Shown here one piece after another: positions 1 to 46,984 of a stretch of 46,984 nt of DNA. The translations under genes were made by a program, and so were the position numbers. The DNA comes from a virus: UHGV virus genome UHGV-0142121; one strand, written 5' to 3'. Every line of letters begins with the position of its first letter. Position 1 is the stretch's first letter. The notes beneath the pieces were generated by a model that saw nothing but the letters and a program-made list of their open reading frames with translations, ran no database searches and had not been told where the DNA came from.

Positions 1-54
1 AAACGACACACATTATTAAATATACGCGCGTATATTTAATAATGTGTGTCGTTT
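1..54. repeat. Hairpin telomere, left end: 54-nt perfect palindrome (apex between 27 and 28)
   Basis: Reverse complement of 1-27 equals 28-54 exactly; core TATACGCGCGTATA with alternating CG centre as recalled for N15-type telO; palindrome abuts the window start, as expected if a closed hairpin was read through. Confidence 0.85.
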
Positions 55-7376: not shown

Positions 7377-7405
7377 TATTTCACCCAAAAAAAGACGCTG
7401 CGCAG

Positions 7406-8439: not shown

Positions 8440-8628
8440 ATGAAAACGAAAGAAGCCATAGCCGCCTGCGGCGGCATAAACAAACTCTGCGAACTGCTCG
8501 GCTGTACTCGCGTTGCGATCTACAAATGGGGAGAGGAAGTCCCCGTGCTTCGACAGTACGAGCTGGAGATTAAAACAAATGGCCGACTCAAATCTGACTA
8601 CACACTGCATAAAGAAAAGGATGCCTAA
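8440..8628 (+). CDS. cro: Cro-like repressor, 62 aa
   Basis: Small HTH protein (ELLGCTRVAIYKWG) divergent from cB. Confidence 0.75.
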   Translation: MKTKEAIAACGGINKLCELLGCTRVAIYKWGEEVPVLRQYELEIKTNGRLKSDYTLHKEKDA

Positions 8629-8631
8629 CCC

Positions 8632-9273
8632 ATGGGACAGAATAAACGTCCATCGCGAGACACAATGTCATCAGTGGTTATACGGGCAACCTTACGGATG
8701 CTCGATGAAACCGGCGGCAGTGTCGCACAATTCTCTACAACGCGCTTGATTCCTGCTCTGGAAGTTCAGGGGCTTGTTGATATGGGGTCTGAAGGCATCA
8801 ATGTCACAGATTACATGCGCTGGCGTAGCCGTTGCATTAAGCGAGCACAGCGCGTCCTGGCTGGCGATACACCGATGCCTGCAGATTGGGTGTTAACGTG
8901 GTTGTCATGTCTTCCGGAAGAGTACCGTAACAAGTGCTCTCAGAAGCTGGCAGCGATGCAGGGCCTGCAATGGGTCCGCATGCCTAAGTACAACCGTATT
9001 CGTGTTGATTCAGTCGACGCTGAAATTGACGAGATTACTGTGAAATTCGGTGCCGTTCTCGCCAACTCAGCGCCAGCCCAGGATGGCGTATACGATGGCA
9101 GTGATGACCAGCACGCCCTGAAGCAGCTGCAGAACCGCCTGTATGAGTTGTCGTCATACCTCTATCGGGAAATCCTGAATATAGAAATGGCCACCGGCAT
9201 TAAACCGGACCACGTTGAACTTGGTGCGCTGAGTCCGCTGGGCCATCAAGCAGGGGGCAAATATGCAGTTTAA
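8632..9273 (+). CDS. Hypothetical early protein, 213 aa (possible regulator)
   Basis: First gene after cro in the same operon; no confident motif. Confidence 0.45.
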   Translation: MGQNKRPSRDTMSSVVIRATLRMLDETGGSVAQFSTTRLIPALEVQGLVDMGSEGINVTDYMRWRSRCIKRAQRVLAGDTPMPADWVLTWLSCLPEEYRNKCSQKLAAMQGLQWVRMPKYNRIRVDSVDAEIDEITVKFGAVLANSAPAQDGVYDGSDDQHALKQLQNRLYELSSYLYREILNIEMATGIKPDHVELGALSPLGHQAGGKYAV

Positions 9274-9928
9274 TTTTGTTCGCAACGAGCTTACTGCAGC
9301 GCTCTTGTCGTTCTCAAAATCTCACCGCAATCAGATCGTCGCGATGGCAGAACGTGCGCCACTGCAGAGCCGATTTACTGCAAAGCCGCAGCGTGAAATT
9401 GATATCGATAACGACACTGTCATTGTCATTGATGCCGAGCCAATCAGCTACAGAGAAGGCAAGCGTTACCATACGAGCATGATCCCGGTATCGCCAGCCA
9501 TTTTTAGCCAGGTGTCATGGCGTAGCGCGTTATTGAAAATGCCTGAGCCGTATAAATCCTGGTTGAATTACTGCTACGGCGATTCAATTTCATTTGAATA
9601 TCAAACAATACTGACAACACATATCTGGCATTCCCTGCTGATTAACCTGGCTGAAAGCAAATCGCCAAAAATGAACGGCAAGACTGAAAGCAACTTAAAA
9701 GCACTTGCCTGGTTGGCTCTACAGGAATCAAAAAATTTCATTAACCGCGGCGAGCTTAAATACAGCCAGGAAGAATTGAGCCAGCTATGTGGTGTGAAAT
9801 ATGACCTATGGCGGAAGAATTATAAAAATCGCTGGGATGTCATGTTGGCCTGCAGTGTTCAAATGGATCGGGAGGCGTTAATACATGTCGACCAATTACG
9901 GAAGAAGCATATCAGCAACAGGCGGTGA
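9263..9928 (+). CDS. Hypothetical early protein, 221 aa (antiterminator Q-like role possible by position only)
   Basis: AGGGGG ribosome-binding site; no confident motif. Confidence 0.45.
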   Translation: MQFNFVRNELTAALLSFSKSHRNQIVAMAERAPLQSRFTAKPQREIDIDNDTVIVIDAEPISYREGKRYHTSMIPVSPAIFSQVSWRSALLKMPEPYKSWLNYCYGDSISFEYQTILTTHIWHSLLINLAESKSPKMNGKTESNLKALAWLALQESKNFINRGELKYSQEELSQLCGVKYDLWRKNYKNRWDVMLACSVQMDREALIHVDQLRKKHISNRR

Positions 9929-14619: not shown

Positions 14620-14852
14620 TAGACCGGAATGTCGTATTGATAAACACATTGACGCGCCGAACAATGGCGAGCGTCACTGCCGGCGGTGATGGTTTCATTT
14701 CTACCGGCACGTTGTCGTTTGATGTTGGCCTGAATACCAGGACTATTCGTCGCATGCTCGATAGCGCAGTAGAGTCGGGCGAAGCTGAGCGCCGTTCTAA
14801 CGGGCCAGGCAAGCCATACAGCTATCGCATTCGGGAGGCGGCATGCTCTTAG
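14616..14852 (+). CDS. Hypothetical protein, 78 aa
   Basis: ATGA coupling; GGGGGG ribosome-binding site. Confidence 0.4.
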   Translation: MIDRNVVLINTLTRRTMASVTAGGDGFISTGTLSFDVGLNTRTIRRMLDSAVESGEAERRSNGPGKPYSYRIREAACS

Positions 14853-15469
14853 ATCATCGCAGCCACACCGCCGCTGAGCATCGAGATACCTGGAGAACTG
14901 ACCCGCGCATAGCCGCGGGCCTTTTTGAGCTATTGCGCCCTTGCCATATTGATGCGTGCGCCAGCGCTGAAAACCATCTTCTGCCGGAGTTCTTTACCCG
15001 CGAAGATAATTGCCTGCAGCTGGACTGGCTGGCTGAAACAAAACGTCGCGGCGTACTGCCAGCGCTTTATGCCAACCCGCCATTCTCGAAAGAGGACAGC
15101 CGAGCGGCTACTCCGCACAATGGCATGGGAAACTTCTTCCGTAAGGCGCGCGTAGAGGCTGAGCAGGGTGTTTATTCTCAATGGCTTTTCCGTGCACGCC
15201 CTGGGGAGAACTGGTTCCCCTGGCAACTAGCCAGCCGCATCTGGTTTATCGTTGGGCGTGTGGGCTTTGTTGATTCTGCCACAGGGAAAATCGACAACGA
15301 GCAGACAGAGAATCATTGTGTAGCCGAATTTATCCCTGGAGAGCATCCGATTCTTGCGGCTGGGCTACCAATAAACCGTGATGACATCCTGGCCGCAGGC
15401 ATGGCTGCAATCAGTTCTGGAAAATATGGATTGATAACAATCCGATACAAACAACTATCGATGAGATAA
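14843..15469 (+). CDS. Phage Dam-like DNA N6-adenine methyltransferase, 208 aa
   Basis: NPPF catalytic motif (YANPPFS) and overall pattern of the phage N6A methyltransferase family; GGAGG ribosome-binding site. Confidence 0.65.
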   Translation: MLLDHRSHTAAEHRDTWRTDPRIAAGLFELLRPCHIDACASAENHLLPEFFTREDNCLQLDWLAETKRRGVLPALYANPPFSKEDSRAATPHNGMGNFFRKARVEAEQGVYSQWLFRARPGENWFPWQLASRIWFIVGRVGFVDSATGKIDNEQTENHCVAEFIPGEHPILAAGLPINRDDILAAGMAAISSGKYGLITIRYKQLSMR

Positions 15470-15491
15470 ATATTTTCAAAATCAGCTTGGA

Positions 15492-15551
15492 AGATCCCCT
15501 TTCTCTATTTACACTGTATAAATAAACAGTATCATCAAGGAAAGGGGATCT
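15492..15551 (+). promoter_or_regulatory. 12-bp inverted repeat (AGATCCCCTTTC / GAAAGGGGATCT) whose 3' arm is the ribosome-binding site of the downstream gene; 36-nt loop carries a LexA box
   Basis: Perfect 12-bp complementarity; 3' arm ends 2 nt before GTG 15554. Confidence 0.5.
15512..15531. promoter_or_regulatory. LexA (SOS) box CACTGTATAAATAAACAGTA
   Basis: CTGT-N8-ACAG with AT-rich spacer, 17/20 to consensus TACTGTATATATATACAGTA; close to my recollection of the E. coli dinI box; overlaps a TATAAA -10-like element. Confidence 0.6.
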
Positions 15552-15553
15552 CG

Positions 15554-15790
15554 GTGAGAGTAGAAATACTTATTGATCAAGAAGCTAAGGTTTCAGAAAA
15601 AGTAATGGCCGCTCTTTCAGAGCAGGTAAAGCAGCGCCTTTCCCCTCAGTTCGAAAAATTCACATTGCGCATAGCAAAGAGCAGTAGCTCTGCGGTGCAG
15701 ATCACCGGCACTAAATCAGCAGATGAGCACAGTGCAGCTATGGACATCTTACAGAGCGTCTGGGAAGACGATAGCTGGCTGCCGGATTAA
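15554..15790 (+). CDS. DinI-like protein, 78 aa
   Basis: Aligns by eye with E. coli DinI (MRVEI..., ITGTKSADEHSAAMDILQSVWEDDSWL vs IGATKEDKQRISEILQETWESADDWF); preceded by a LexA box. Confidence 0.65.
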   Translation: MRVEILIDQEAKVSEKVMAALSEQVKQRLSPQFEKFTLRIAKSSSSAVQITGTKSADEHSAAMDILQSVWEDDSWLPD

Positions 15791-15817
15791 GTAGCTAGGT
15801 TGCAGGAGGTTGAATTG

Positions 15818-16081
15818 ATGACAGACGACACATGCAGTTCTGATTTACTCGCGTTGAAACTACAGCAGCTAAACGCATTGATTCAGGTTGTTCGTCGGAC
15901 GCTGGATAGCAGTGAAGGCAGCATTTATCTGAACGAGGCCATTAATTTAATGGGCGCTGCTGGAGAGATGACTCAAGACTGTGAAGCCATACGAAAGCGG
16001 ATAGATGTTGAGTTGTATCAGCAGAGCAGCAAGTACTACAGCCTGTATGGCTCTAGCTCTGATCGCCAGTCTGCCGGGTGA
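15818..16081 (+). CDS. Hypothetical protein, 87 aa, co-transcribed with the DinI-like gene (candidate antirepressor)
   Basis: AGGAGG ribosome-binding site 8 nt before ATG 15818; role inferred from SOS context only. Confidence 0.4.
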   Translation: MTDDTCSSDLLALKLQQLNALIQVVRRTLDSSEGSIYLNEAINLMGAAGEMTQDCEAIRKRIDVELYQQSSKYYSLYGSSSDRQSAG

Positions 16082-16194: not shown

Positions 16195-16283
16195 TTGCAA
16201 AAACTTCACAAAAAAATTAAACTTTTTCTAAGTTGGGTTTTCTGTAACCAGCTTATTCTAACCGCCTTCATGGCGGTTTTTTT
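16195..16283 (+). promoter_or_regulatory. Putative late promoter (TTGCAA ... TAAACT) plus short leader ending in an intrinsic terminator (16261-16283)
   Basis: Promoter-like hexamers followed about 40 nt later by hairpin ACCGCC-TTCAT-GGCGGT and seven T, upstream of the methyltransferase-lysis operon; architecture resembles Q-dependent late promoters. Confidence 0.35.
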
Positions 16284-16419
16284 GTGCCTTGAAAATGGGC
16301 GCTGCAGCATGTGTGACCATGCCACAGCTTTCAGCCCATGCCGCGGGACAGGGTGAAACAAGGCCCATTGCTGATGCGCAACAGCAAAACGAGCCTATCA
16401 AAAAAGGCTGATAAACACC

Positions 16420-17485: not shown

Positions 17486-17508
17486 AGCCCCGCATTGCGG
17501 GGCTTTTT
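17486..17508 (+). terminator. Intrinsic terminator after the methyltransferase gene
   Basis: 8-bp GC-rich stem AGCCCCGC/GCGGGGCT followed by TTTTT. Confidence 0.6.
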
Positions 17509-17539: not shown

Positions 17540-17851
17540 ATGAACACAGCTATCGAATACGGGAATCCTGATTTATGGCTGGTTTTGCTCATGCTCGCAG
17601 CAGGAGCAATATCCAGCGCCCTGCTCTCTGCCGACCCCATCAATTTAAAGCGCCTTGTAGGTGATGTCCTTCGGGGTGTTCTGGTAGCCATCATCCTCTG
17701 GTCTTACGGCGTGATCGGCGAAATCTCAATTCTAAAAATTATCACTTTGGCCGGACTCGCGTCGGTGGCCTGGCCGCATACGGTCAATGAGGTCACGCGG
17801 TTTGCGGCGCGGACTATCAGCCGTTTATTCGGCGGGAGAAAACAACGATGA
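17540..17851 (+). CDS. Holin, 103 aa, lambda S-like
   Basis: Three hydrophobic segments and a charged C-terminus; pattern resembles lambda S; start taken at ATG 17540. Confidence 0.6.
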   Translation: MNTAIEYGNPDLWLVLLMLAAGAISSALLSADPINLKRLVGDVLRGVLVAIILWSYGVIGEISILKIITLAGLASVAWPHTVNEVTRFAARTISRLFGGRKQR

Positions 17852-19644: not shown

Positions 19645-19662
19645 TTGGGACCATGGTCCCAA
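19645..19662. repeat. sopC-like palindrome TTGGGACCATGGTCCCAA (perfect)
   Basis: Starts at the base after the upstream stop codon; followed by an intrinsic terminator. Confidence 0.75.
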
Positions 19663-19669
19663 TGAAATG

Positions 19670-19692
19670 AACCACCTTCGGGTGGTTTTTTT
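19670..19692 (+). terminator. Intrinsic terminator closing the lysis operon
   Basis: Stem AACCACC/GGTGGTT with TTCG loop, then TTTTTTT. Confidence 0.65.
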
Positions 19693-19804
19693 ATGCGCAT
19701 CGCACGCGCACATCAAAGAGAGTCTTTCAGTAGTGAGCCTGGGTAATCCGTTAACTCTTGGCGGCTTTGCCGTGCGACAGGCTCACGTCTAAAAGGAAAT
19801 AGCT

Positions 19805-21779: not shown

Positions 21780-21799
21780 CGACTTTACTCTCGACTGAA

Positions 21800-21990
21800 C
21801 CGGCACCACGATGGCGGCGGGGGGATTGATTTCATTATGAAATCATTCAATGTGAAATCACTTTCAATATCAATAATGAGAATCAATATCATTAGAAGGG
21901 GATAGGGGGGGGTAAAATCCCTAAACCCCCCCGCCGTTGAGGACTGCCGCTTCCAGTCGATTTTTACACGTGGGAAATAAGATCTTTTTT
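21800..21990. other. Putative cos packaging site region
   Basis: Non-coding stretch just upstream of terminase small subunit with GGCGGCGGGGGG (21813-21825), a G8...C7 symmetric element (21903-21932) and repeated (A/G)TGAAATCA motifs. Confidence 0.4.
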
Positions 21991-22042
21991 TTGGATGAAA
22001 TTACCGTAACAGAAAACGCAATTGATGCATGGAGGTGCGCAG

Positions 22043-22480: not shown

Positions 22481-22498
22481 TTGGGACCACGGTCCCAT
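22481..22498. repeat. sopC-like palindrome TTGGGACCACGGTCCCAT at the terS/terL junction
   Basis: 16-mer TGGGACCACGGTCCCA starts at the base after the terS stop and precedes the terL ATG. Confidence 0.7.
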
Positions 22499-22507
22499 TT
22501 TTTATGG

Positions 22508-25670: not shown

Positions 25671-25710
25671 AACAAGTCCGCAGCCGCGGGCTTTTCTTTT
25701 GGTGGAAACC

Positions 25711-26622: not shown

Positions 26623-26646
26623 CCCGACGCCTACGCGTCACCCTGA

Positions 26647-26671
26647 AAGCAGCCATATGGCTGCTTTTTTT
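26647..26671 (+). terminator. Intrinsic terminator between protease and major capsid genes
   Basis: Stem AAGCAGCC/GGCTGCTT with ATAT loop, then TTTTT. Confidence 0.55.
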
Positions 26672-26694
26672 ATGTCTAAAAAGAGAGAAAAATC

Positions 26695-27984
26695 ATGCCT
26701 CAGATTGAAGAATTACGTCGTCAGCGCGCGGGTATTAACGATCAGGTTCAGGCTCTGGCTCAGGTTGAGCTGGGCGGCGGCGTATTGTCCGCCGAGCAAC
26801 TGACTCAGTTTAACAGCCTGCAGCAACAGTTCACCGATATCACCGCTCAAATCACCCGTCTGGAAGCGGCAGAACGCGCCGCAGCAGCGGTAGCGGTTCC
26901 GGTATCCGCAACGGGTACTGGCGCGCCGGCGATTCATGTGAAAGCCGAACCCGCTCAGTACAAGGGCGCGAGCATGACCCGCATGGTTATGGCTATCGCC
27001 GCCGGTGGTGGTAACCTGGGCGATGCGCAGATCTTTGCCGCTAAGGAACTGAACGATAATCAGGTCGCGATGGCGATCAGCACTGCTGCCGGTTCTGGTG
27101 GCGCTCTGGTTCCGACCAATATGCAGAACGAGGTCATCGAGCTGCTGCGCGACCGCACCATCGTTCGTAAGCTGGGCGCGCGTTCCGTGCCACTGCCGAA
27201 CGGCAATATGGCTCTGCCACGCCTGGCCGGTGGTTCGACTGCCAGCTATGTCGGTGAAGGGAAGGACGTGAAAGCCAGCGGCGCCAGCTTTGATGATGTG
27301 AAACTCAGCGCGAAAACGATGATCTGTATGGTTCCGCTGTCGAACCAGTTGATCGGTCGCGCCGGGTTCTCTGTTGAGCAGCTGATTCTGGGCGATATCA
27401 TCAGCGGTATTGCTACCCGCGAAGATAAAGCCTTCCTGCGTGATGATGGCACCGCTGACACGCCGAAGGGCATGAAAGCAGTTGCGACCGCTGCGACACG
27501 CTTCAAAACGTGGGATAAGGATGCTGACCCAACGCTGCAGAACATCGACACCTATCTGGATGGGCTGATCCTGATGACCATGGACGGCAACAGCAACATG
27601 CTGCAGTGCGGCTGGGGTATGTCTAACCGCACCTACATGAAGCTGTTTGGTCTGCGTGATGGCAACGGGAACAAGGTTTACCCGGAAATGGCCGCCGGTA
27701 TGCTGAAGGGCTATCCTATTGAGCGTACCAGCGCGATCCCGGCGAACCTCGGTACCGGCGGTAACGAGTCAGAGATTTACTTCGCTGACTTCAGCGATGT
27801 GCTGATCGGTGAAGAGGGAGACATGAAGGTCGATTTCTCGCGTGAAGCAACTTACATCGATGCGGATGGCAACACCGTTTCTGCGTTCGCCCGTAACCAG
27901 TCCCTGATCCGCGTTATCGTTGAGCACGATATTGGTTTCCGTCACGTCGAAGGTCTGGCGCTCGGTACCGGCGTTCTCTGGTAA
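26695..27984 (+). CDS. Major capsid protein with N-terminal coiled-coil (scaffold-like) domain, 429 aa
   Basis: Position after protease, size, and an N-terminal 90-aa Ala/Gln-rich helical region. Confidence 0.75.
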   Translation: MPQIEELRRQRAGINDQVQALAQVELGGGVLSAEQLTQFNSLQQQFTDITAQITRLEAAERAAAAVAVPVSATGTGAPAIHVKAEPAQYKGASMTRMVMAIAAGGGNLGDAQIFAAKELNDNQVAMAISTAAGSGGALVPTNMQNEVIELLRDRTIVRKLGARSVPLPNGNMALPRLAGGSTASYVGEGKDVKASGASFDDVKLSAKTMICMVPLSNQLIGRAGFSVEQLILGDIISGIATREDKAFLRDDGTADTPKGMKAVATAATRFKTWDKDADPTLQNIDTYLDGLILMTMDGNSNMLQCGWGMSNRTYMKLFGLRDGNGNKVYPEMAAGMLKGYPIERTSAIPANLGTGGNESEIYFADFSDVLIGEEGDMKVDFSREATYIDADGNTVSAFARNQSLIRVIVEHDIGFRHVEGLALGTGVLW

Positions 27985-28014
27985 TCGTTCGCGATAGTGA
28001 TTCGTTCGATGCTG

Positions 28015-28041
28015 AAAAGGCCCGTTTAGCGGGCCTTTTTT
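28015..28041 (+). terminator. Intrinsic terminator after the major capsid gene
   Basis: Hairpin AAAAGGCCCG...CGGGCCTTTT with T-run. Confidence 0.6.
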
Positions 28042-28065
28042 ATTCACTTTAGCTGGAGATAGAGC

Positions 28066-28413
28066 ATGGCTGGAAAACCTAAAACCAAAACAGACGCGGA
28101 CACCACAACTTCCGTTGATGGTGTTGATGCGATTATTGATACCTCCAATATTGTCGACAGTGTGATTTCTGGTGATGTGATTACCGGTGATGAAATTGGG
28201 ACCGTGGTCCCAGCGGTGAAATCCGCGCCGGAACGTCGCGCTGTTGTGTTCCTGGGGCCGTACCATCGTTATTCGCGCGCTGATGTCGCTGCGTTCGATG
28301 CCGAATACGCTGAAGAGCTTGTTGCACGCAATATCGCTGCCTGGCCAGAAGATGCGAAGCGGGCGTTGAATCCTCGTCGGGGAGACGATGACCATGAAAC
28401 CGACATTGGATGA
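28066..28413 (+). CDS. Hypothetical head-region protein, 115 aa; contains a sopC-like palindrome
   Basis: GGAGA ribosome-binding site; palindrome 28196-28213 encodes DEIGTVVPAV. Confidence 0.4.
   Translation: MAGKPKTKTDADTTTSVDGVDAIIDTSNIVDSVISGDVITGDEIGTVVPAVKSAPERRAVVFLGPYHRYSRADVAAFDAEYAEELVARNIAAWPEDAKRALNPRRGDDDHETDIG
28196..28213. repeat. sopC-like palindrome TTGGGACCGTGGTCCCAG inside a CDS
   Basis: 16-mer TGGGACCGTGGTCCCA with 2-bp centre. Confidence 0.65.
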
Positions 28414-28717
28414 AGTTAAGCTCCAGCTGCGTCTCGAGCTGGATTTTACCGAGCATGACGATCTGCTGACGCGCCTGATTGGTGCCGCGCGTCGCAGTAT
28501 CGAGCGCTCGTATTACTGTCGCCTTTCTGAGTCGCAGGATGAACTGGACAAACTTCCGGAAGGCCAGCCGGCGTACCTGATTGATGACGATATCCAGCTG
28601 GCCATGCAGATGATGGTCGCCCACTGGTATCTCAACCCGACAGGTGCCGGCGAGGGGACGCCGTCAGAACTTGGCGTTTCCTACCTGCTGTTTCCGCTGA
28701 TGGAGCATACGGTATGA
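28388..28717 (+). CDS. Head-tail connector (gp6-like) protein, 109 aa
   Basis: Sequence pattern and position typical of the gp6-like connector family. Confidence 0.5.
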   Translation: MTMKPTLDEVKLQLRLELDFTEHDDLLTRLIGAARRSIERSYYCRLSESQDELDKLPEGQPAYLIDDDIQLAMQMMVAHWYLNPTGAGEGTPSELGVSYLLFPLMEHTV

Positions 28718-29058
28718 GCCAGAAACCACTGCAACCCGGCGAGCTGAATTGCCGGCTGTCGTTCAGCTACATCGTTATTGGCGAAGGCCCGCTGGGTGAG
28801 CCGTTGCCAGCGCAGGAGGTGCAGGCGGGGAAAGCCTGGGCGAAGAAAGATCTGATTTCAGGCCGGAAAATCCGGACGCTGGACCAGCAGCAGGTGGTCG
28901 AAACCTGTGAATTTACTCTCTATCCGCGTGAAGTGGATATCGACTGGAAGGTGGCCACAAAGGACCGGGTTTATACCGTTCGCAACGTGGACCGACTTCC
29001 GGACCGCATGATCATTACGGGGGAGGCTGACGGGCGCCATGATCGAGCAGGCCATTAA
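28714..29058 (+). CDS. Head closure / head-tail joining protein, 114 aa
   Basis: Position and size; ATGA coupling. Confidence 0.45.
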   Translation: MSQKPLQPGELNCRLSFSYIVIGEGPLGEPLPAQEVQAGKAWAKKDLISGRKIRTLDQQQVVETCEFTLYPREVDIDWKVATKDRVYTVRNVDRLPDRMIITGEADGRHDRAGH

Positions 29059-29419
29059 ACCCGCACTGGAGCGCATTACGGGGCTAAAAGCGTATCCGCT
29101 GCTGCTGCCTGATAGCGTGCAGGAAGGGGTCACGTTTCAGCGAATTTCCGATCCACCGGTCGGCGATGGTCTGGTGCGTACGGGGCTTTGTGATGTACGG
29201 ATGCAGGTAAATTTGTACATCGTTGACGACTACACCCACATGCTGGCGCTGGATAAGGCGTTATGGGACGAGTGGAAAACGCTGGTACACGGTGAGCTTG
29301 AAAGCTATCCGGTCCAGTATGTTGAACGCGGTGGCATCCAGCAGGATAAAGTCACCCTGACCAGCGGACGCGTACAGTACCGCCTCATCCGAGATTTTAC
29401 GTTTACGGTTCCAGAGTAA
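29039..29419 (+). CDS. Tail completion protein (lambda Z-like position), 126 aa
   Basis: Synteny only. Confidence 0.35.
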   Translation: MIEQAIKPALERITGLKAYPLLLPDSVQEGVTFQRISDPPVGDGLVRTGLCDVRMQVNLYIVDDYTHMLALDKALWDEWKTLVHGELESYPVQYVERGGIQQDKVTLTSGRVQYRLIRDFTFTVPE

Positions 29420-29424
29420 ATCCT

Positions 29425-29835
29425 ATGGAGATGAACATTAAATTCCCGACCGGGAAGGATTTCGATCGGATTCTGGAAGATATCGACAAAAAAGTGGGTG
29501 TGAAGTTGCTACGTGATGCCGGGCGTGAGGCGATGAAAATCGTTCAGCTGGACATGATTAGCAACGCCGGTTTCGATGAGGAAAGCATCGGGCCGCACAT
29601 GCGCGACAGCATCAAAATCCGCAGCACCAACGTAGCAGAAACATCCCACTATAACACGATCGTCACGCTTCGTGTCGGTCCCAGCAAATTCCATCACATG
29701 AAAGCCCTGGCGCAAGAGTTTGGCACCGTAAAACAGGTGGCCAAGCCGTTTATTCGTCCGGCGATGGATTACAACGTTCAAAAAATCCTGCAGGTGCTGG
29801 CAACCGAAATCCGCATCGGGCTGGAAGGTCAATAA
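29425..29835 (+). CDS. Tail terminator-like protein (lambda U / HK97 gp10-like position), 136 aa
   Basis: Synteny plus weak family resemblance. Confidence 0.35.
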   Translation: MEMNIKFPTGKDFDRILEDIDKKVGVKLLRDAGREAMKIVQLDMISNAGFDEESIGPHMRDSIKIRSTNVAETSHYNTIVTLRVGPSKFHHMKALAQEFGTVKQVAKPFIRPAMDYNVQKILQVLATEIRIGLEGQ

Positions 29836-29847
29836 TCGGAGATAAAA

Positions 29848-30321
29848 ATGGCTGACGAAAATATCAAATCCCCCTCGGAGTATGCATCTCTCCCGGCGGG
29901 TACCCGCGTGTCTTACGGCACAGTTGGCGCAACACTTGCAACGGCGAAGCTGTTGCAGTCGGCAACGGCCATCGGAGCCACAGGCAACAAAGGGACGTTT
30001 ATCGACGTTACCCGCCTGATTGATACCGAGCCGAAATATATGGCTGACATGGGCGAAGGCGAAGATAAAACACTGGTCTTTATTGATGACCCGGATGATG
30101 TCGCACAGCAGGCGCTGCTGGCCTCCGCTGATGCGAAAGAAACGGTCGTATTCTTCATGCAGTTCCCGAACCGCCGTCTGGCGGAGATTCAGCTCGTTCT
30201 TGCCGGCTGGAGCATGCAGACCGTAGATTCACCGAAAGGCAAGGTGCTGCAGCTGGAGGTTTACGGCAAGCAGAACAAACTGAAATGGACCGTTACTCCA
30301 GCTGATGCTGGCGGCGAATAA
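29848..30321 (+). CDS. Major tail tube protein, 157 aa
   Basis: Position immediately before the G/GT chaperone pair; GGAGA ribosome-binding site. Confidence 0.5.
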   Translation: MADENIKSPSEYASLPAGTRVSYGTVGATLATAKLLQSATAIGATGNKGTFIDVTRLIDTEPKYMADMGEGEDKTLVFIDDPDDVAQQALLASADAKETVVFFMQFPNRRLAEIQLVLAGWSMQTVDSPKGKVLQLEVYGKQNKLKWTVTPADAGGE

Positions 30322-30383
30322 CGCCATTTAATAGCTGACCCGGCCCGGCTTCCCTTCACTCATTCATCATCAGGATCATCGTC

Positions 30384-30728
30384 ATGAACTACAAATCCCT
30401 CACCACCCCATTGAATACAACGACTGAAAAGAAACTGCTTGGCCAGAAGGTATTTATCCGCCGCCTGACCAATACCGAGCTGGATAATTATACCGATGCA
30501 GTAGAAGCGGCCCAGAAGGAAGGGAAGTCCCCTCGACAGCTCTCAGTGATGGGGGTGAATTTATTCCTGCAGGCGTTGGTTAACGAAGACGGTAGCCGCC
30601 CTGGGAAGAAGGACCTTCCGACGGCGGAAGAACTGCTTGATGTTCATGCATCCGCTGATTTGCTGGAAGCCGTTACCCTGGTTCAGCGCCATTCCTACGG
30701 TACGCTTGAGGAAGCGGAAAAAAACTAA
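30384..30728 (+). CDS. Tail assembly chaperone G, 114 aa
   Basis: Position before tape measure; ends at slippery heptamer A-AAA-AAC (30719-30725). Confidence 0.6.
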   Translation: MNYKSLTTPLNTTTEKKLLGQKVFIRRLTNTELDNYTDAVEAAQKEGKSPRQLSVMGVNLFLQALVNEDGSRPGKKDLPTAEELLDVHASADLLEAVTLVQRHSYGTLEEAEKN

Positions 30729-30967
30729 CCGCCTCGCCCCGGCTTAGACTGCTGTTCACACTGGCAGACCGCTGGGGCGAGCCTGACCCGCGCAAACTTG
30801 GTGACCTGCCGGCAAATATTCTCACCCATTGGGAGGCGTATTTTAACCTCCTGAAGACTGAGACCGCCGGCGAGCCACCGCCATCATCACCGCAGCCTGC
30901 TGTTGCACCGTCTGAGGGCGCTCAGCAGTTCGCTGATTGTCTGAGGATCTTAGGAAATGGCTGCTGA
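30384..30967 (+). CDS. Tail assembly chaperone GT fusion via programmed -1 frameshift at 30719-30725
   Basis: The -1 frame is open from the slippery site to TGA at 30965-30967 (about 80 extra codons), overlapping the tape-measure start. Confidence 0.55.
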
Positions 30968-33935
30968 TGTTGCATCGTTGGCTGTTGCGCTTCACCTGAA
31001 CTCGGCCAGCTTCAAATCGCAGTTCGCTGATGCGATGCGGTCGGCTGACAGTGGGGCGCAACAGTTCAATAGAAAGGCGCAGGCGGATGCCAAAAATACC
31101 CGCCAGTCATACGAGGGAGTCAGCAAAGGGATCACCGGTCTCGATGCTGATTTTAACAAACTTGGCCGCACGGTTGATAAGCGTCTGACCGGGCTTGATG
31201 AGATGCGCGGCCTGCTGGCCAGCATCTCTGCCGGTAGTAACGTTGCCGGCAGTTCTATAGCAAACGCGCTGGTTACTTCGCTCAGCGAGGGTATGAGTAC
31301 CGCGCTATCAAACAGCGTGAATGGCCTGAAGAACCAGCGACAGGCCCAGATTGAGTTCACCGCGGCGCAGGTTGATGCGGCGCGCGGCGTAATTGAGAAC
31401 GCCAGGAGCCTCCGCGAAGAGGCCATCGCCAAACAGAACGCCGCGGTGAAAACTATTGAGGCGGCGAAGGCCGATCGTGAACGTGCATTCGCACTCGATG
31501 AGTATTACGCCAAACAGGCCGAGGTAAACAAACAGTTCGGGTTGACGGTTGATTATCAGGAAGAGCACGTTAAAAACTCGCGTGTGATTAATGAAGCCAA
31601 CCTGGCGGAAGCCAAAGGGAAAGGCAGCCTGGCAGAAGCGACAAAAGCCGTGCTGGCCGCCGATATTGCCGAATCCAACGGTAAGCAGCAGCTGGCCACA
31701 TCGACCCGTAATCTGGTGGTTGTCAGCCAGGAACTCTCGCTCGGCCAGCGTGCTGCTGCGACCAGCGCGGGTCTATTGCGTGGCGCGCTGGCGATGGTCG
31801 GCGGTCCTGTCGGCCTTGCCGTGATGGCGGCTGTCGGCGCTGGTACCGCTATTTATACCGCGTTCTCGCGCAGCCAGGCGGAGATCGACGGGTTCAATAA
31901 GGCGCTGCAGAAGTCCGGGCAGCAGTCCGTGATGAACGTGATGTACCTGCAGAACCTGGTTTCCCGTCTGGGCGATACCGCCGGTGCGGTTAAGTCGGTC
32001 ACTGCCGCTGTCGGTGCCGGGTTCGGCGGCGATATTCTGGATCAGGTGGCGGGGCTTGGCACCCGTATGGAAGAAATTGGCCAGAGTTCTGATGACCTGG
32101 TTACGCTGCTTTCCAGTCTCAGCGGCGACCCGCTGAACGCGCTGCAAAAGCTGACCGATCAGGGAATTTTGCTGAACAGCAGCATGGTCGATCAGATTGT
32201 TACCCTGAACCGCCAGGGGAAAACGACTGAGGCTACCGCGCTGCTGCAGCAGGCGGCCATGGATGACGTTTCCCAGAAGCTCAAAGAGCAGGAAAGCCAG
32301 GTCGGCGTGCTGGAAGGGGCGTGGAAGTCCCTGAAAGGGTTTGTTGCTGATGCTTTTAAGACCATGGGAGATGCGCACATAGCGACCGCCCAGGCGATGG
32401 CCGCTGGTGCCAATGTCGATCTGACGCCAACCGAAGACCCCGCCATCAAACAGCGTGAAGAAGCTGAAAAACTCTACCAGCAGCGGAAGAAAGAGCGAGA
32501 GGAACTGACGAAGCGCCTCAAGGATGAAAACACCCTTTCTGGCCTGATGAAAGCGGGCGTATCGCGCGAAAAAGAGCGAGCTGATGCTATCGCACTGGTT
32601 AACGCGAACTATACGAAAGGCACGGCGGAGTACACGCAGGCGATGGCTGGCGTGAACAAGATGTACGCCGAGCAGAAAAAAGCGCGTGAGAAAGCCTACA
32701 GCGATGATGCTGCCACTCGCCGCCTGCAGGAGCTGAAGCAGGAAGAGACGGTGCTGCGTACGCAGAACGACCAGACGGAAGAACTGACGAACAGCGAGCG
32801 TAAGCTGCTGCAGTTCAATCAGGAAGTTGCCGATCTGAAAGAAAAGCGCATCCTGACCGCTGGCCAGCGCAGTCTGCTGGCGCAGGAAACAGAGCTTCGT
32901 AACCAGCTGCAGATCAACGCCAGTCTGGACCGAGCCAACGCGCAGCGGAAAATCGGCCTGCAGATGCAGGAGAAGAACCAGGAACTGTACCGCTCAACCA
33001 TCCAGTTGCAGCAGGAGTACAGCAACCGGGTCGCGCAGATGACGATGAGTTCAACTGCATATGACCAGATGGTTGCAGAGCAGCAAGTTCGTGAACGATT
33101 TGCAAAACTGAGGGAAGAGCTTGATAAAACCGTAAGTGATCACGCTTCTGAACAGTATCGCCAACAAACGGAAGTATTACGCACTGAAGAGCAGAAGCAG
33201 TTCGATATTATTTTGAGCGGTGCTAAGCGAAAAAAAGAAGTGGAAGGCTCTTGGATTGACGGTATGAAAAGCGGGCTACAGGAGTGGCGTGAAGATGCTG
33301 AAAACCAGTTTGCTATGACGCGAGATATTGCAGTTAATGCGATGGACGGCATGAGCAATAGCATCTGGAATTTAGCCTCTAAAGGGAAGGCTGATGTTAA
33401 GTCATTTGCAGTTTCAGCTATCAATGATATCGGGCAGATGATTACCAAAATGCTGGTCATGAATGCGGTCAAATCAGGCGCATCTGCATTTGGCATAAGT
33501 AGCATGTTTGGCTGGGCAGATGGTGGCTATACAGGTGATGGTGGCAAGCATGATGTTGCCGGCGTCGTGCATAAGGGGGAATGGGTAGTACCTCAGAACG
33601 TCGTGCAAAAGCCTGGCATGCTGAATTTCCTGAACCAGCTGACATACGGCAGCGGGTATGCAGACGGTGGTTTAGTCGGTGGTAGCGTTGCCCGCCCGTC
33701 CAGCAATGAGGATGCCGGCAGCGATAATCGAAACATCCGCGTTACGGTCAACATCCCGCTGCAGGTGATTAAGCAGGGAGCCGCAGCAACTCAGCAATCA
33801 AAAGATCAGGGGAAAACGAGTGATGAAGCTCTAAGCCTCGAGGCGCTATCCCAGATTAAGCAGGTCTGCTATAGCGTGCTGGACCGTGAGTTATCGAATA
33901 ACGGCATGATCCTGAACGCAATCAAGGGGGCGTGA
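30957..33935 (+). CDS. Tail tape measure protein, 992 aa
   Basis: Long Ala/Gln-rich helical protein with Gly-rich C-terminal region, after G/GT. Confidence 0.85.
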   Translation: MAADVASLAVALHLNSASFKSQFADAMRSADSGAQQFNRKAQADAKNTRQSYEGVSKGITGLDADFNKLGRTVDKRLTGLDEMRGLLASISAGSNVAGSSIANALVTSLSEGMSTALSNSVNGLKNQRQAQIEFTAAQVDAARGVIENARSLREEAIAKQNAAVKTIEAAKADRERAFALDEYYAKQAEVNKQFGLTVDYQEEHVKNSRVINEANLAEAKGKGSLAEATKAVLAADIAESNGKQQLATSTRNLVVVSQELSLGQRAAATSAGLLRGALAMVGGPVGLAVMAAVGAGTAIYTAFSRSQAEIDGFNKALQKSGQQSVMNVMYLQNLVSRLGDTAGAVKSVTAAVGAGFGGDILDQVAGLGTRMEEIGQSSDDLVTLLSSLSGDPLNALQKLTDQGILLNSSMVDQIVTLNRQGKTTEATALLQQAAMDDVSQKLKEQESQVGVLEGAWKSLKGFVADAFKTMGDAHIATAQAMAAGANVDLTPTEDPAIKQREEAEKLYQQRKKEREELTKRLKDENTLSGLMKAGVSREKERADAIALVNANYTKGTAEYTQAMAGVNKMYAEQKKAREKAYSDDAATRRLQELKQEETVLRTQNDQTEELTNSERKLLQFNQEVADLKEKRILTAGQRSLLAQETELRNQLQINASLDRANAQRKIGLQMQEKNQELYRSTIQLQQEYSNRVAQMTMSSTAYDQMVAEQQVRERFAKLREELDKTVSDHASEQYRQQTEVLRTEEQKQFDIILSGAKRKKEVEGSWIDGMKSGLQEWREDAENQFAMTRDIAVNAMDGMSNSIWNLASKGKADVKSFAVSAINDIGQMITKMLVMNAVKSGASAFGISSMFGWADGGYTGDGGKHDVAGVVHKGEWVVPQNVVQKPGMLNFLNQLTYGSGYADGGLVGGSVARPSSNEDAGSDNRNIRVTVNIPLQVIKQGAAATQQSKDQGKTSDEALSLEALSQIKQVCYSVLDRELSNNGMILNAIKGA

Positions 33936-33937
33936 TA

Positions 33938-34285
33938 ATGGCGCTGGAAACATTCAACTGGTCGCCGAGGAATGGTCCCGTTGGTGACATTCAATTTCGT
34001 ACCCGGTCAGCGCAATATGGCGACGGTTACGAGCAGGTAACTGGCGACGGTATTAACTCCGAAACGCAGTCATGGCCACTGACGTTTGTCGGGTTAAATG
34101 AGGATATCCGCCCTATCCTGACTTTCCTCAGAGAGCATGGCGAAACGCGTGCGTTTAAGTGGGTCAACCCTCTGGGTGAGCTTGGGTTATATCGTGCCAC
34201 CCAGATAAAACCCACCGTGATGGATTTTGCTCGTATGTCGCTATCTGTTACGTTTGTGACGGCATTTCGCGCCGAATCATCATAG
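33938..34285 (+). CDS. Minor tail protein M, about 115 aa
   Basis: Resembles lambda gpM (RSAQYGDGYEQV vs RFGDGYSQR); AGGGGG ribosome-binding site. Confidence 0.65.
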   Translation: MALETFNWSPRNGPVGDIQFRTRSAQYGDGYEQVTGDGINSETQSWPLTFVGLNEDIRPILTFLREHGETRAFKWVNPLGELGLYRATQIKPTVMDFARMSLSVTFVTAFRAESS

Positions 34286-34293
34286 AGGGATAT

Positions 34294-34671
34294 ATGAAAG
34301 GACTATTTTCCGCACTTATTATGTGTATTGCATTAACTGGTTGTGTCCAACCTATGACAAAAGCTGAAGTTGATCGTGCAGTTTATGAACCGTTGCCTGC
34401 AGATTACCAAGAGCAAATAAAATCAACGATTGAGCTTAAGCTAAAAGATCCTGACTCTGCAAAATATCGGTTTTTCGACCCCAAAAAAGGATATACAGAG
34501 GGTACACGACACTTTGGCTTTGTAGTTCCCGTAGGTGTTAACGCAAAAAATAGCTATGGTGGATATACAGGTTATAAATTGTATTATTTCGTTTATTACA
34601 ACCAATCATTCAAGGATGTCACCGAAGGCGTAGCATGGGATGCAGTCAAATGGTCTGATGACGTCAAATAG
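34294..34671 (+). CDS. Lipoprotein, 125 aa, moron inserted between tail genes M and L
   Basis: Signal peptide with lipobox LTGC; AT-rich codons; own ribosome-binding site and own terminator. Confidence 0.6.
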   Translation: MKGLFSALIMCIALTGCVQPMTKAEVDRAVYEPLPADYQEQIKSTIELKLKDPDSAKYRFFDPKKGYTEGTRHFGFVVPVGVNAKNSYGGYTGYKLYYFVYYNQSFKDVTEGVAWDAVKWSDDVK

Positions 34672-34691
34672 CCTCACCCCGTCCCCACACA

Positions 34692-34714
34692 AACCCCGCT
34701 CTACGGGGTTTTTT
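34692..34714 (+). terminator. Intrinsic terminator after the lipoprotein moron
   Basis: Stem AACCCCG/CGGGGTT with CTCTA loop, then TTTTT. Confidence 0.6.
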
Positions 34715-34718
34715 GTTA

Positions 34719-34736
34719 TTGGGACCATAGTCCCAA
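34719..34736. repeat. sopC-like palindrome TTGGGACCATAGTCCCAA (one mismatch)
   Basis: Lies between the moron terminator and the gpL ribosome-binding site. Confidence 0.65.
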
Positions 34737-34749
34737 TCAGGAGAACCCC

Positions 34750-35499
34750 ATGGGTATCGCAGCTGATGATCAGAAATTAGAACCCGGCAGCAAAATCGAA
34801 CTGTACGAGGTGGACGGCACTGCGTTCGGGGCCGAGGTGCTTTATTTCCATAACCACGCCATCCCGTACACCGCAGAAGAGATCCTCGCCGCCGGCGATG
34901 ATGCCAGCCTGCTGCCCGGTAAGCCTATTTTCTGGCAGGGCATACGCTACGATGCGTGGCCATGCCGGATTGAGGACATGGAATCGAACGGTGATGGCTC
35001 GCCGGCTACACCGAAATTATCGGTAGCCAACCTGGACGGCTCGATCTCTTCCCTGTGTGGCATGTTCCAGGACATGAAGCAGGCCAAGGTGACGGTTCAC
35101 CGGACCTACGCACATTATCTCGATGCGGAAAACTTCCCCGACGGCAACCCTGGCGCCGACCCGACCGCTGACAGCGTGGAGGTCTGGTACATCGACAGCA
35201 AGTCTGCGGAGAACGACACCACTGTCCAGTTCAAATTATCCTCGCCGGTCGATGTGACCGGGCAGAAGCTACCGGGCCGCCAGATGCTGAGCCGTTGCGC
35301 CTGGTGCCTGCAGGGCCAATACCGTGGCGCCGACTGTGGCTATACCGGAACAAATTACTTCGACAAATTTGGCAACCGGGTCGACAACCCGGCGAAAGAT
35401 GAATGTCCCGGCACCGTAGCCGGCTGCAAATTGCGCTGGGGCGAAAACTCAGAGCTGCCGTTCGGCGGCTACCCGGCCATTGCACTGATAAGGATGTAA
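34750..35499 (+). CDS. Minor tail protein L, 249 aa
   Basis: Lambda gpL-like C-terminal Cys cluster (CAWCLQG...CGYTG...CPGTVAGCKLRWG). Confidence 0.75.
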   Translation: MGIAADDQKLEPGSKIELYEVDGTAFGAEVLYFHNHAIPYTAEEILAAGDDASLLPGKPIFWQGIRYDAWPCRIEDMESNGDGSPATPKLSVANLDGSISSLCGMFQDMKQAKVTVHRTYAHYLDAENFPDGNPGADPTADSVEVWYIDSKSAENDTTVQFKLSSPVDVTGQKLPGRQMLSRCAWCLQGQYRGADCGYTGTNYFDKFGNRVDNPAKDECPGTVAGCKLRWGENSELPFGGYPAIALIRM

Positions 35500-35501
35500 C
35501 C

Positions 35502-36209
35502 ATGCTGAGCCAGCGACTGATTACCGCCATCCAGAAGCATGCCGAGAAGGTATATCCGCATGAGTGTTGCGGGTTGATTATCCGGGCTGGACGCCAGCGC
35601 CGGTATATTCCCTGCGAAAACACCCACGACCAGCCCGCTGAATTTTTCCGGATCAGTGCTGAAGCCTGGGCCGATGCTGAGGACGCTGGCGAGGTGCTGG
35701 CGGTTGTGCATTCGCATCCTGATGCCGGGCCACATGCGTCTGCAGAAGACCTGAAGCAATGCCATGAAAGCGGCCTGCCATGGATCATTATGTCGTGGCC
35801 ATCCGGAGAGCACACCGTCACCACGCCAGCCGATACACCGCCGCTGCTGAAGCGTCCGTTTATCCATGGCAGTTGGGACTGCTATGGGCTTATCCGCGAC
35901 TGGTACAAGCAGGAACGTGGCATAGAGTTACCCAACTTTGAGCGGACCGATAACTGGTGGACACGCGGAGAGAATCTCTACGTTCGGCACTATGCTGAGG
36001 CGGGGTTTTACTCGCACGTCAGCGAGCTGCAGCCGGGCGATATCATCCTGATGCAGTACAAGGCCGATGAAATTAACCATGCCGGCATTTACCTGGGGGA
36101 CGGAAAGATGTTCCACCACATGTATGGCCGGCTGAGTGAAGTTGTTCCGTACGGCGGCATGTGGCGCGACCGTACGCTGTTAACGCTGAGGTATAGAGAT
36201 GGGCAGTGA
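35502..36209 (+). CDS. Tail assembly protein K (JAB/MPN plus NlpC/P60-like), 235 aa
   Basis: HECCGL and VHSHPD motifs of the gpK N-terminal domain plus C-terminal peptidase-like region; start at ATG 35502. Confidence 0.75.
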   Translation: MLSQRLITAIQKHAEKVYPHECCGLIIRAGRQRRYIPCENTHDQPAEFFRISAEAWADAEDAGEVLAVVHSHPDAGPHASAEDLKQCHESGLPWIIMSWPSGEHTVTTPADTPPLLKRPFIHGSWDCYGLIRDWYKQERGIELPNFERTDNWWTRGENLYVRHYAEAGFYSHVSELQPGDIILMQYKADEINHAGIYLGDGKMFHHMYGRLSEVVPYGGMWRDRTLLTLRYRDGQ

Positions 36210-36810
36210 ATCCCTTAATACCGTTGAAAAAGTCGTCCTGGTGCGCCTGTACGGCAAGCTGGGAACGTTATTTGGGCGCGAGCACCGGCTGTCCGTCTCA
36301 TCCGTACGTGAAGCGATACGCGCGCTCTGCATCATGATCCCCGGTTTCGAACTTTGGCTGGAAACAAGCCAGGAGCGGGGTATTACGTATGCCATCTTTA
36401 ACGGCGAACGCAATATCCGCGAGCAGGACCTGCAGCTGGATGGCGTACACGAAGTTATCCGCATTGCGCCGGTGATTATCGGCAGCAAGAAAAATGGGGC
36501 GTTCCAGACTATTTTTGGTGCCGTATTAGTTGCAGTGGGATTCGTGCTCAGTTTTACACCATACGCAGCAGCATCACCGTTTCTCTACAAAATTGGTGCG
36601 GCAATGATGCTGGGTGGTGTTGCGCAGATGCTCGTTCCAGCAGGGACGCAGGGTATGACGAACGAATCAAAAGACACCCGGAAAAGTTACTCGTTCGGTG
36701 CGCCGGCGAACCAGGTGGCCGCGGGGAGTGGTGTTCCGATTCTTTACGGCATCCGTGAAATCGGCGGCGTACTGATTAGCGGCGGGATCTACGCCGAGGA
36801 CCAGAACTAA
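36199..36810 (+). CDS. Tail assembly protein I, 203 aa
   Basis: Lambda gpI-like, hydrophobic C-terminal half; position between K and J. Confidence 0.7.
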   Translation: MGSESLNTVEKVVLVRLYGKLGTLFGREHRLSVSSVREAIRALCIMIPGFELWLETSQERGITYAIFNGERNIREQDLQLDGVHEVIRIAPVIIGSKKNGAFQTIFGAVLVAVGFVLSFTPYAAASPFLYKIGAAMMLGGVAQMLVPAGTQGMTNESKDTRKSYSFGAPANQVAAGSGVPILYGIREIGGVLISGGIYAEDQN

Positions 36811-36827
36811 AAGACCTTTATCCAATT

Positions 36828-36852
36828 ATCCCGCTTCGGCGGGATTTTTTTT
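36828..36852 (+). terminator. Strong intrinsic terminator between tail genes I and J
   Basis: Stem ATCCCGC/GCGGGAT with TTCG loop, then eight T. Confidence 0.6.
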
Positions 36853-36866
36853 GCCCGGAGTTAGCA

Positions 36867-46508: not shown

Positions 46509-46746
46509 TGAAGGGCGGCATATGACATGCAGCGCGAAGCGCTGTGGAAGCATAAAAAGGGGTTTTATAGAGGCAAAAGAGCCAAACTGGAAGATGGTTC
46601 AATAAACGTCAACACCTAACATAATGTTTTTCAATGATAATATAAGGAATTTCCGTTTAACTGTTGGAGAACAACAAGCATCATAACACGTGATTTTTTT
46701 ACTATTTTTTATTTTCATTCGATGAATGAATGAAAGCAAATAACAA

Positions 46747-46930: not shown

Positions 46931-46984
46931 TAACAGAACACATTATTAAATATACGCGCGTATATTTAATAATGTGTTCTGTTA
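46931..46984. repeat. Hairpin telomere, right end: 54-nt perfect palindrome (apex between 46957 and 46958)
   Basis: Reverse complement of 46931-46957 equals 46958-46984; shares the 40-nt core with the left-end palindrome, outer 7 nt differ. Confidence 0.85.

Follow-up and report, generated by a model that had tools for sequence, protein, structure and literature searches.

Terminators in the late operon

The closest described systems for the DNA analysed here are the telomere phage-plasmids N15 and phiKO2, and our comparison with them rests on their GenBank feature tables. In phiKO2 (AY374448) five sites are annotated as 'putative terminator'. Two of them flank the capsid gene, one separating it from the protease gene (4665-4687) and the other following it (6020-6039); the others are found after the major tail gene, 3' of the moron gene gp19 (14635-14659) and between the I and J homologues (15298-15320). 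In N15 (AF064539) the label is 'putative rho-indep. transcription terminator'; it stands on both sides of the major head gene, again behind the major tail gene, and at 15307-15330 between the genes 20 (I) and 21 (J). The UHGV virus genome UHGV-0142121 (46,984 nt; "the window" hereafter means this whole stretch of DNA) is likewise a telomere phage-plasmid, whose nucleotide identity to N15 and phiKO2 is at most about 74-81%, and it carries four hairpins with T-runs within its block of structural genes. This kind of feature and its junctions are already annotated in N15 and phiKO2.

An initial annotation of the window had placed strong hairpins with T-runs between the protease and capsid genes, after the capsid gene, after a lipoprotein moron and between the tail genes I and J. 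All four were recovered with displacements of at most 1-2 nt, on the + (coding) strand and each between genes (Table 1), and family searches agreed with the gene identities it had given: S49 protease, HK97-type capsid and the tail genes L, K, I and J. As an intrinsic terminator we accepted a G+C-rich stem-loop with a stem of 5-14 bp and a loop of 3-8 nt, followed immediately 3' by a T (U) run, on the transcribed strand and in non-coding DNA. At the four sites the stems are 7-12 bp long and include 5-6 G-C pairs, the hairpins have energies of -11 to -18 kcal/mol, and the gaps that hold them measure 56-81 nt and lie outside coding sequence. Judged by these sequence features, all four hairpins have the structure of genuine Rho-independent terminators, and their reading as intrinsic terminators within the structural block is supported by the joint retention of hairpin and T-run in relatives.

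The four sites are part of a series of about nine sense-strand terminators in the late operon, which comprises 34 co-oriented genes over ~26 kb (16420 to 42397). A strict scan of 16000-42400 (minimum stem length 7 bp, four or more G-C pairs, TTTT immediately 3') yielded seven sites on the + strand, all of them intergenic, and none on the - strand; 200 dinucleotide shuffles, which served as a control, gave a mean of 0.22 and a maximum of 2. With looser tails, extra sites appeared at 25674 (portal/protease) and 22482 (TerS/TerL). Eight of the ten real late-operon gaps longer than 25 nt contain a hairpin with a T-run, and the remaining 22 junctions measure 13 nt or less or overlap; apart from the places with a terminator, the operon is thus tightly packed.

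The beginning of the operon also has its equivalent in the known phages. In phiKO2 a putative late promoter and then a terminator are annotated upstream of the methylase gene, with another terminator after it and, farther along, a partition site and its terminator; by position, these two later terminators correspond to the sites at 17486 and 19669 of the window, and both N15 and phiKO2 have the late-promoter-proximal and the post-methylase terminators in common with the window. The segment 16160-16295 aligns with the annotated putative late promoter and terminator of phiKO2, both promoters being putative. Differences are found at several junctions. The I/J stem is TCCCGC/GCGGGA in the window and GGCCACC/GGTGGCT in N15 and phiKO2; the terminator that both phages have after the major tail gene is missing from the window; the centromere sites of the window are F-type, whereas those of N15 and phiKO2 are N15-type; and the moron lies between M and L in the window, but between K and I in phiKO2.

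Table 1. Terminators, promoter, palindromes and genes of UHGV-0142121 (T6 to T8, runs of six to eight T; z, fold z-score)
Feature	Position	Strand	Sequence and details
Terminator 1, protease/capsid	26645-26671	+	GAAAGCAGCC-ATAT-GGCTGCTTTT + T7; stem 26645-26668 (10 bp), T7 26665-26671; hairpin -14.9 kcal/mol; minimum free energy of fold -16.4, z -4.2; bounded by protease stop (26622) and capsid ATG (26695)
Terminator 2, 3' of capsid gene	28014-28041	+	12-bp stem GAAAAGGCCCGT/GCGGGCCTTTTT, T6; stem 28014-28040, T6 28036-28041; -17.9 kcal/mol, z -3.5; capsid stop 27984
Terminator 3, between lipoprotein moron and L	34691-34714	+	AAACCCCG-CTCTA-CGGGGTTT, T6; stem 34691-34711 (8 bp), T6 34709-34714; -11.2 kcal/mol; 20 nt past lipoprotein stop (34671)
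Terminator 4, I/J	36828-36852	+	ATCCCGC-TTCG-GCGGGAT, T8; stem 36828-36845 (7 bp, UUCG loop), T8 36845-36852; -11.7 kcal/mol; bounded by I stop (36810) and J ATG (36867); J Shine-Dalgarno GGAG 36857-36860
Terminator-like hairpin, portal/protease	25674-25700	+	AAGTCCGC-AGCC-GCGGGCTT + TTCTTTT
sopC palindrome + T6, TerS/TerL	22482-22503	+	also scores as intrinsic terminator
Terminator	19669-19695	+	GAACCACC-TTCG-GGTGGTTT + T-run; sopC site upstream at 19646-19661
Terminator between Dam-like methylase and holin-like gene	17486-17508	+	phiKO2 equivalent annotated 46718-46739
Promoter-proximal tR'-like terminator	16260-16285	+	scans and alignment with phiKO2 terminator
Putative late promoter	16195-16223	+	TTGCAA-17 nt-TAAACT; aligned with phiKO2 'putative late promoter'
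F-type sopC palindrome	34720-34735		TGGGACCATAGTCCCA; 5 nt past terminator 3 T-run, 8 nt past its stem
sopC-type palindromes	2125, 6737, 6993, 10193, 16170, 19646, 22482, 28197, 34720, 38696, 44555		16 bp each
Lipoprotein moron	34294-34671	+	125 aa, lipobox LTGC; between M and L; phrog_2320
Q-type antitermination protein gene	9263-9928	+	phrog_304 E 7e-64; PF06323 Phage_antiter_Q E 3.9e-42
Protelomerase	213-2114		TelK domains, family searches
N15-type RepA	3387-7388	-	family searches
CB-like repressor, then cro, open reading frame without known function, Q-type antiterminator			family searches
DinI/antirepressor unit, Dam-like methylase, lysis region, HNH endonuclease, TerS, TerL			family searches
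Portal, S49 protease, HK97-type capsid, lambda-type tail genes through L/K/I/J, then tail fibre			family searches
UmuD			family searches
SopB/SopA		-	family searches

Conservation in relatives and in lambda

Relatives were gathered by alignment-based scans; single-protein scans gave 0 in genome contigs and 1 in viral contigs. Two sets of loci were surveyed: 80 IMG/VR loci with capsid homologues (identity 73-81%) and 78 usable loci with homologues of I (identity 47-84%). The loci are phylogenetically non-independent, and the following counts overstate the number of independent events: a hairpin with a T-run stands just upstream of the capsid gene in 79 of the 80 loci and just downstream of it in all 80, and the I/J gap (~50-65 nt) contains one in 63 of the 78. 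Two control segments within the capsid gene gave 0/80 each, and control segments of the same size as the I/J gap gave 4/75 and 2/78.

The capsid-flanking hairpins occur in 25 (upstream) and 26 (downstream) distinct variants, in which the stems are retained and the loops vary. At the I/J position at least five sequence families of stems, unrelated to one another, are present, which we counted as replacements and not as covariation; the stem of terminator 4 is identical in the relatives L006-L021. An alignment of the I/J hairpins across families was out of structural register and was dropped, and pair counting was limited to the N15/lambda type, in which 100% of cells are paired and two pairs show compensatory changes. 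It could be argued that the hairpins have no present function and are leftovers of moron insertion, or linkers conserved at the boundaries of recombining modules. The M/L junction is indeed a slot for variable inserts whose 3' boundary is constant, and the I/J boundary lies ahead of the host-range gene, where exchange is frequent. We regard this explanation as most improbable, given that near-universal retention, compensatory changes and several unrelated stems at one position point to selection on structure, not on sequence.

The same surveys bear on a possible role of the hairpins as boundaries of RNA stability or processing. After an endonucleolytic cut, the hairpins would stop 3' exonucleases, and the bracketed capsid mRNA would outlive the rest. 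Hairpins of the REP and papA type at 3' ends are an established means of differential expression within operons and offer a precedent, and both the conserved hairpins on the two capsid flanks and the combination of conserved stems with drifting loops are in line with such a role. Exonuclease protection, however, needs no T-run, and in the relatives hairpin and T-run are retained jointly. When hairpins were sought without requiring a T-run, 46 of the 50 distinct I/J hairpins and all 36 of those upstream of the capsid gene had 7-9 T in the next 10 nt, compared with a background T fraction of 0.22. As a U-tract is needed for intrinsic termination and not for protection from exonucleases, the conserved T-run favours real terminators. 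Furthermore, no processing sites were identified, and Rfam and tRNA scans gave no match. A role primarily in RNA stability is therefore unlikely in our view.

The site before J had been considered unusual in the initial annotation, which also took lambda to have no terminator at this place. Neither view can be upheld: N15 and phiKO2 annotate such a site, most of the surveyed I loci carry it, and the I/J gap of lambda reads AAACCGCC-TGCG-GGCGGTTT followed by TGTCATTT (15463-15490, the hairpin at 15463-15482; fold -21 kcal/mol, z -4.1). The T-run of lambda is interrupted (TTTTGTCATTT), whereas the T8 of the window is uninterrupted. Lambda also possesses a D/E hairpin with T7 (6097-6125) and another hairpin after E. 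Both the D/E and the I/J hairpin are unannotated in the two lambda records and were missed by our consensus terminator scan, but recovered by RNAfold; at I/J, greedy extension of the stem by G-T pairs had probably consumed the T-run.

For discovery, the four terminators are of low importance, because their layout is annotated in N15 and phiKO2 and the question of what such sites do inside antiterminated late operons has already been raised in the literature. Two by-products of the surveys are that the capsid-flanking hairpins are essentially invariant in the 80 relatives, and that the I/J hairpin with its T-run is kept in about four-fifths (~80%) of lambda-type tail modules, lambda included, typically ~10-20 nt upstream of the J start and just ahead of the ribosome-binding site. 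Since lambda itself carries the I/J hairpin, the role of this site is directly testable there, where genetics is easy.

Probable read-through and a possible insulating role

The presence of terminators within the late operon can have several explanations. We favour, with a probability of roughly 0.55, the one in which the terminators serve mainly to stop RNA polymerase unmodified by Q; in lytic growth they would for the most part be read through. The late operon, with its methylase, lysis, packaging, head and tail genes, would start at the promoter near 16.2 kb, which would have its own promoter-proximal terminator. As is characteristic of Q-antiterminated lambdoid late operons, the window encodes a Q-family protein, and lysis and virion genes follow downstream in the same orientation with no internal promoter found. 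At the terminator sites only 15-25 nt separate the T-run from the next start codon, too little space for a promoter, and a promoter consensus scan of the gaps detected no promoter-like site between the terminators and the next genes; capsid, L, K, I and J would therefore be expressed by read-through only. Q would most likely render RNA polymerase terminator-resistant at the late promoter, as it does in lambda. Like the window, lambda has a long co-oriented late operon and a Q-family protein, and the putative late promoter of the window with its terminator would be laid out like pR'-tR' of lambda; in contrast, the head genes of lambda are non-homologous to the HK97-type head genes of the window, and the function of Q is proven in lambda but deduced from homology in the window. 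The targets of the terminators would be polymerases leaking past the first terminator, transcripts from spurious internal starts and the moron's own transcript, and the virion genes would thereby be kept silent in the plasmid-prophage. In lytic growth, residual termination together with hairpin protection of 3' ends may cause a modest enrichment of upstream segments.

Alternatively, as the initial annotation had proposed, partial termination might control the stoichiometry of head and tail proteins. The sites would then act as leaky attenuators in lytic growth, in the manner of T-phi in phage T7. T-phi directly follows the capsid gene 10, within the structural block, and its partial termination has been measured; T7 has its own polymerase and is not known to have an antiterminator. 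The window resembles T7 in having a terminator immediately after the major capsid gene, although termination in the window is predicted only. Such a terminator after the capsid gene is present in 80/80 relatives as well, and in N15 and phiKO2 terminators follow both the major head and the major tail gene. On the other hand, site 1 immediately precedes the capsid gene (as in 79/80 loci), and termination there would make the most abundant protein scarcer in relation to portal and protease. The tail-tip proteins L, K, I and J of lambda are all low-copy, and a site before J is therefore without clear stoichiometric logic. Moreover, we infer that about nine serial terminators at typical efficiencies would leave essentially no J transcript, and the element encodes a Q antiterminator (PF06323).

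A comparable situation is found in the P22-like phage L, where intrinsic terminators are predicted inside a single-promoter, antiterminated late operon, as here, but the virion genes of this short-tailed phage are unrelated and the positions of the terminators are different (PMC8022706). Of the intra-operon terminators in P22-like phages it is stated that 'their roles are not known', and two roles are suggested: one is partial termination that lowers the downstream mRNA, the other is the insulating role favoured here (PMC8022706). Control of stoichiometry by partial termination is thus an existing speculation in the literature (PMC8022706), possible as a secondary effect but doubtful as the main function of the sites. 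No direct measurement of termination within lambdoid late operons turned up in our literature searches.

Several observations weigh against insulation from unmodified polymerase. The putative late promoter fits the consensus at only 8 of 12 positions. The 62-nt gap 3' of the major tail gene (30322-30383) is without a hairpin (fold z +1.5), at a place where N15 and phiKO2 annotate a terminator. In the telomere phages, Q is only a 'putative antiterminator' (PMC4488713), and no qut site was identified in the window, where no search for one was made. Finally, insulation alone fails to explain the precise placement of the hairpins around the capsid gene and before J.

The moron, the centromere sites and the linear element

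Morons are inserts that consist of a promoter, a gene and a terminator (PMC3594210). The lipoprotein gene upstream of L resembles this class, being an AT-rich extra gene between conserved tail genes, closed by terminator 3; its GC content dips to 36-38%, compared with 52-60% in the flanks. A consensus scan revealed no promoter site upstream of 34294, the only hits lying inside the gene, and the moron is therefore only a putative independent transcription unit. It departs from the moron class in that the unit of terminator and sopC palindrome is retained in relatives whatever the insert: in all relatives examined, the sequence directly upstream of L is AAACCCCGC-loop-GCGGGG, T6, then TGGGACCAYGGTCCCA. 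The contents of the M/L slot vary, with a diverged lipoprotein homologue in L006 (41% identity over 64 aa) and unrelated 219-aa and 76-aa open reading frames in L011 (27-932), and its 3' boundary is constant; terminator 3 and the adjoining palindrome are kept in L006, L011, L013 and L021 despite their differing upstream inserts.

The palindrome next to terminator 3 is one of 11 occurrences in the window of the 16-bp motif TGGGACCA(Y)(R)GTCCCA, for which 1.1 are expected, and several of them lie inside the virion gene block. They are identical or near-identical to the SopB-binding site of the F plasmid, TGGGACCACGGTCCCA (PMC3597684). N15 and phiKO2, in contrast, have only four dispersed sites of another type (TGCGACC..GGTCGCA); PY54 and four IMG/VR relatives have some of the palindrome positions in common with the window, and the same motif is found at the TerS/TerL junction of PY54 (L005, 509-522). 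Twice in the window a centromere palindrome adjoins a terminator hairpin at a distance of 5-10 nt (19646-19695 and 34691-34735), and phiKO2 annotates one such pairing (partition site 48618, terminator 48672). It is conceivable, though quite unlikely, that the I/J hairpin is a dedicated regulator of J, acting on its expression or processing, and/or that the pairs of terminator and SopB site, among them the palindrome with T6 at 22482, couple the binding of the partition complex to the silencing of virion genes in the prophage.

The two ends of the window (1-54 and 46931-46984) are each a perfect 54-nt palindrome with the centre TATACGCGCGTATA; the two palindromes have the core ACACATTATTAAATATACGCGCGTATATTTAATAATGTGT in common and differ in their outer arms. 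They are consistent with hairpin telomeres (telL, telR) read around the turn, and palindromes at both ends indicate that the window represents an entire N15/PY54-like linear plasmid-prophage, shown in its plasmid orientation. Among the records, Klebsiella phiKO2-like phages and Yersinia PY54 come nearest, at ~74% nucleotide identity in the head genes only. The identity to phages and plasmids is mostly 60-80%, with only three plasmid records in the 80-90% band, and ~81% is the ceiling among the annotated phage and plasmid records examined; Megablast against E. coli genomes gave no match. Public metagenome and SRA assemblies list the exact protein sequence of the capsid (26695-27984) in 56 blocks, which indicates that the phage-plasmid recurs in public data.

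Some further regions of the element deserve mention. The 242-nt non-coding gap upstream of TerS (21780-22021) is without a terminator-like site and presumably represents the cos/packaging region. An open reading frame of 103 aa (17540-17851) starts right after the terminator at 17486; a family search with it gave no match; judged by eye it is rich in hydrophobic segments, and it is probably a holin that opens the lysis cassette. A sigma-70-like promoter (10 of 12 positions) precedes the homologues of DinI and of an antirepressor at 15508-16081, which by analogy may form an SOS-controlled antirepressor unit resembling the one known from N15. The cro-to-Q operon (8440-9928) contains an additional 213-aa open reading frame between cro and Q (phrog_4834, 'CII-like'), as in PY54 and unlike N15 and phiKO2.

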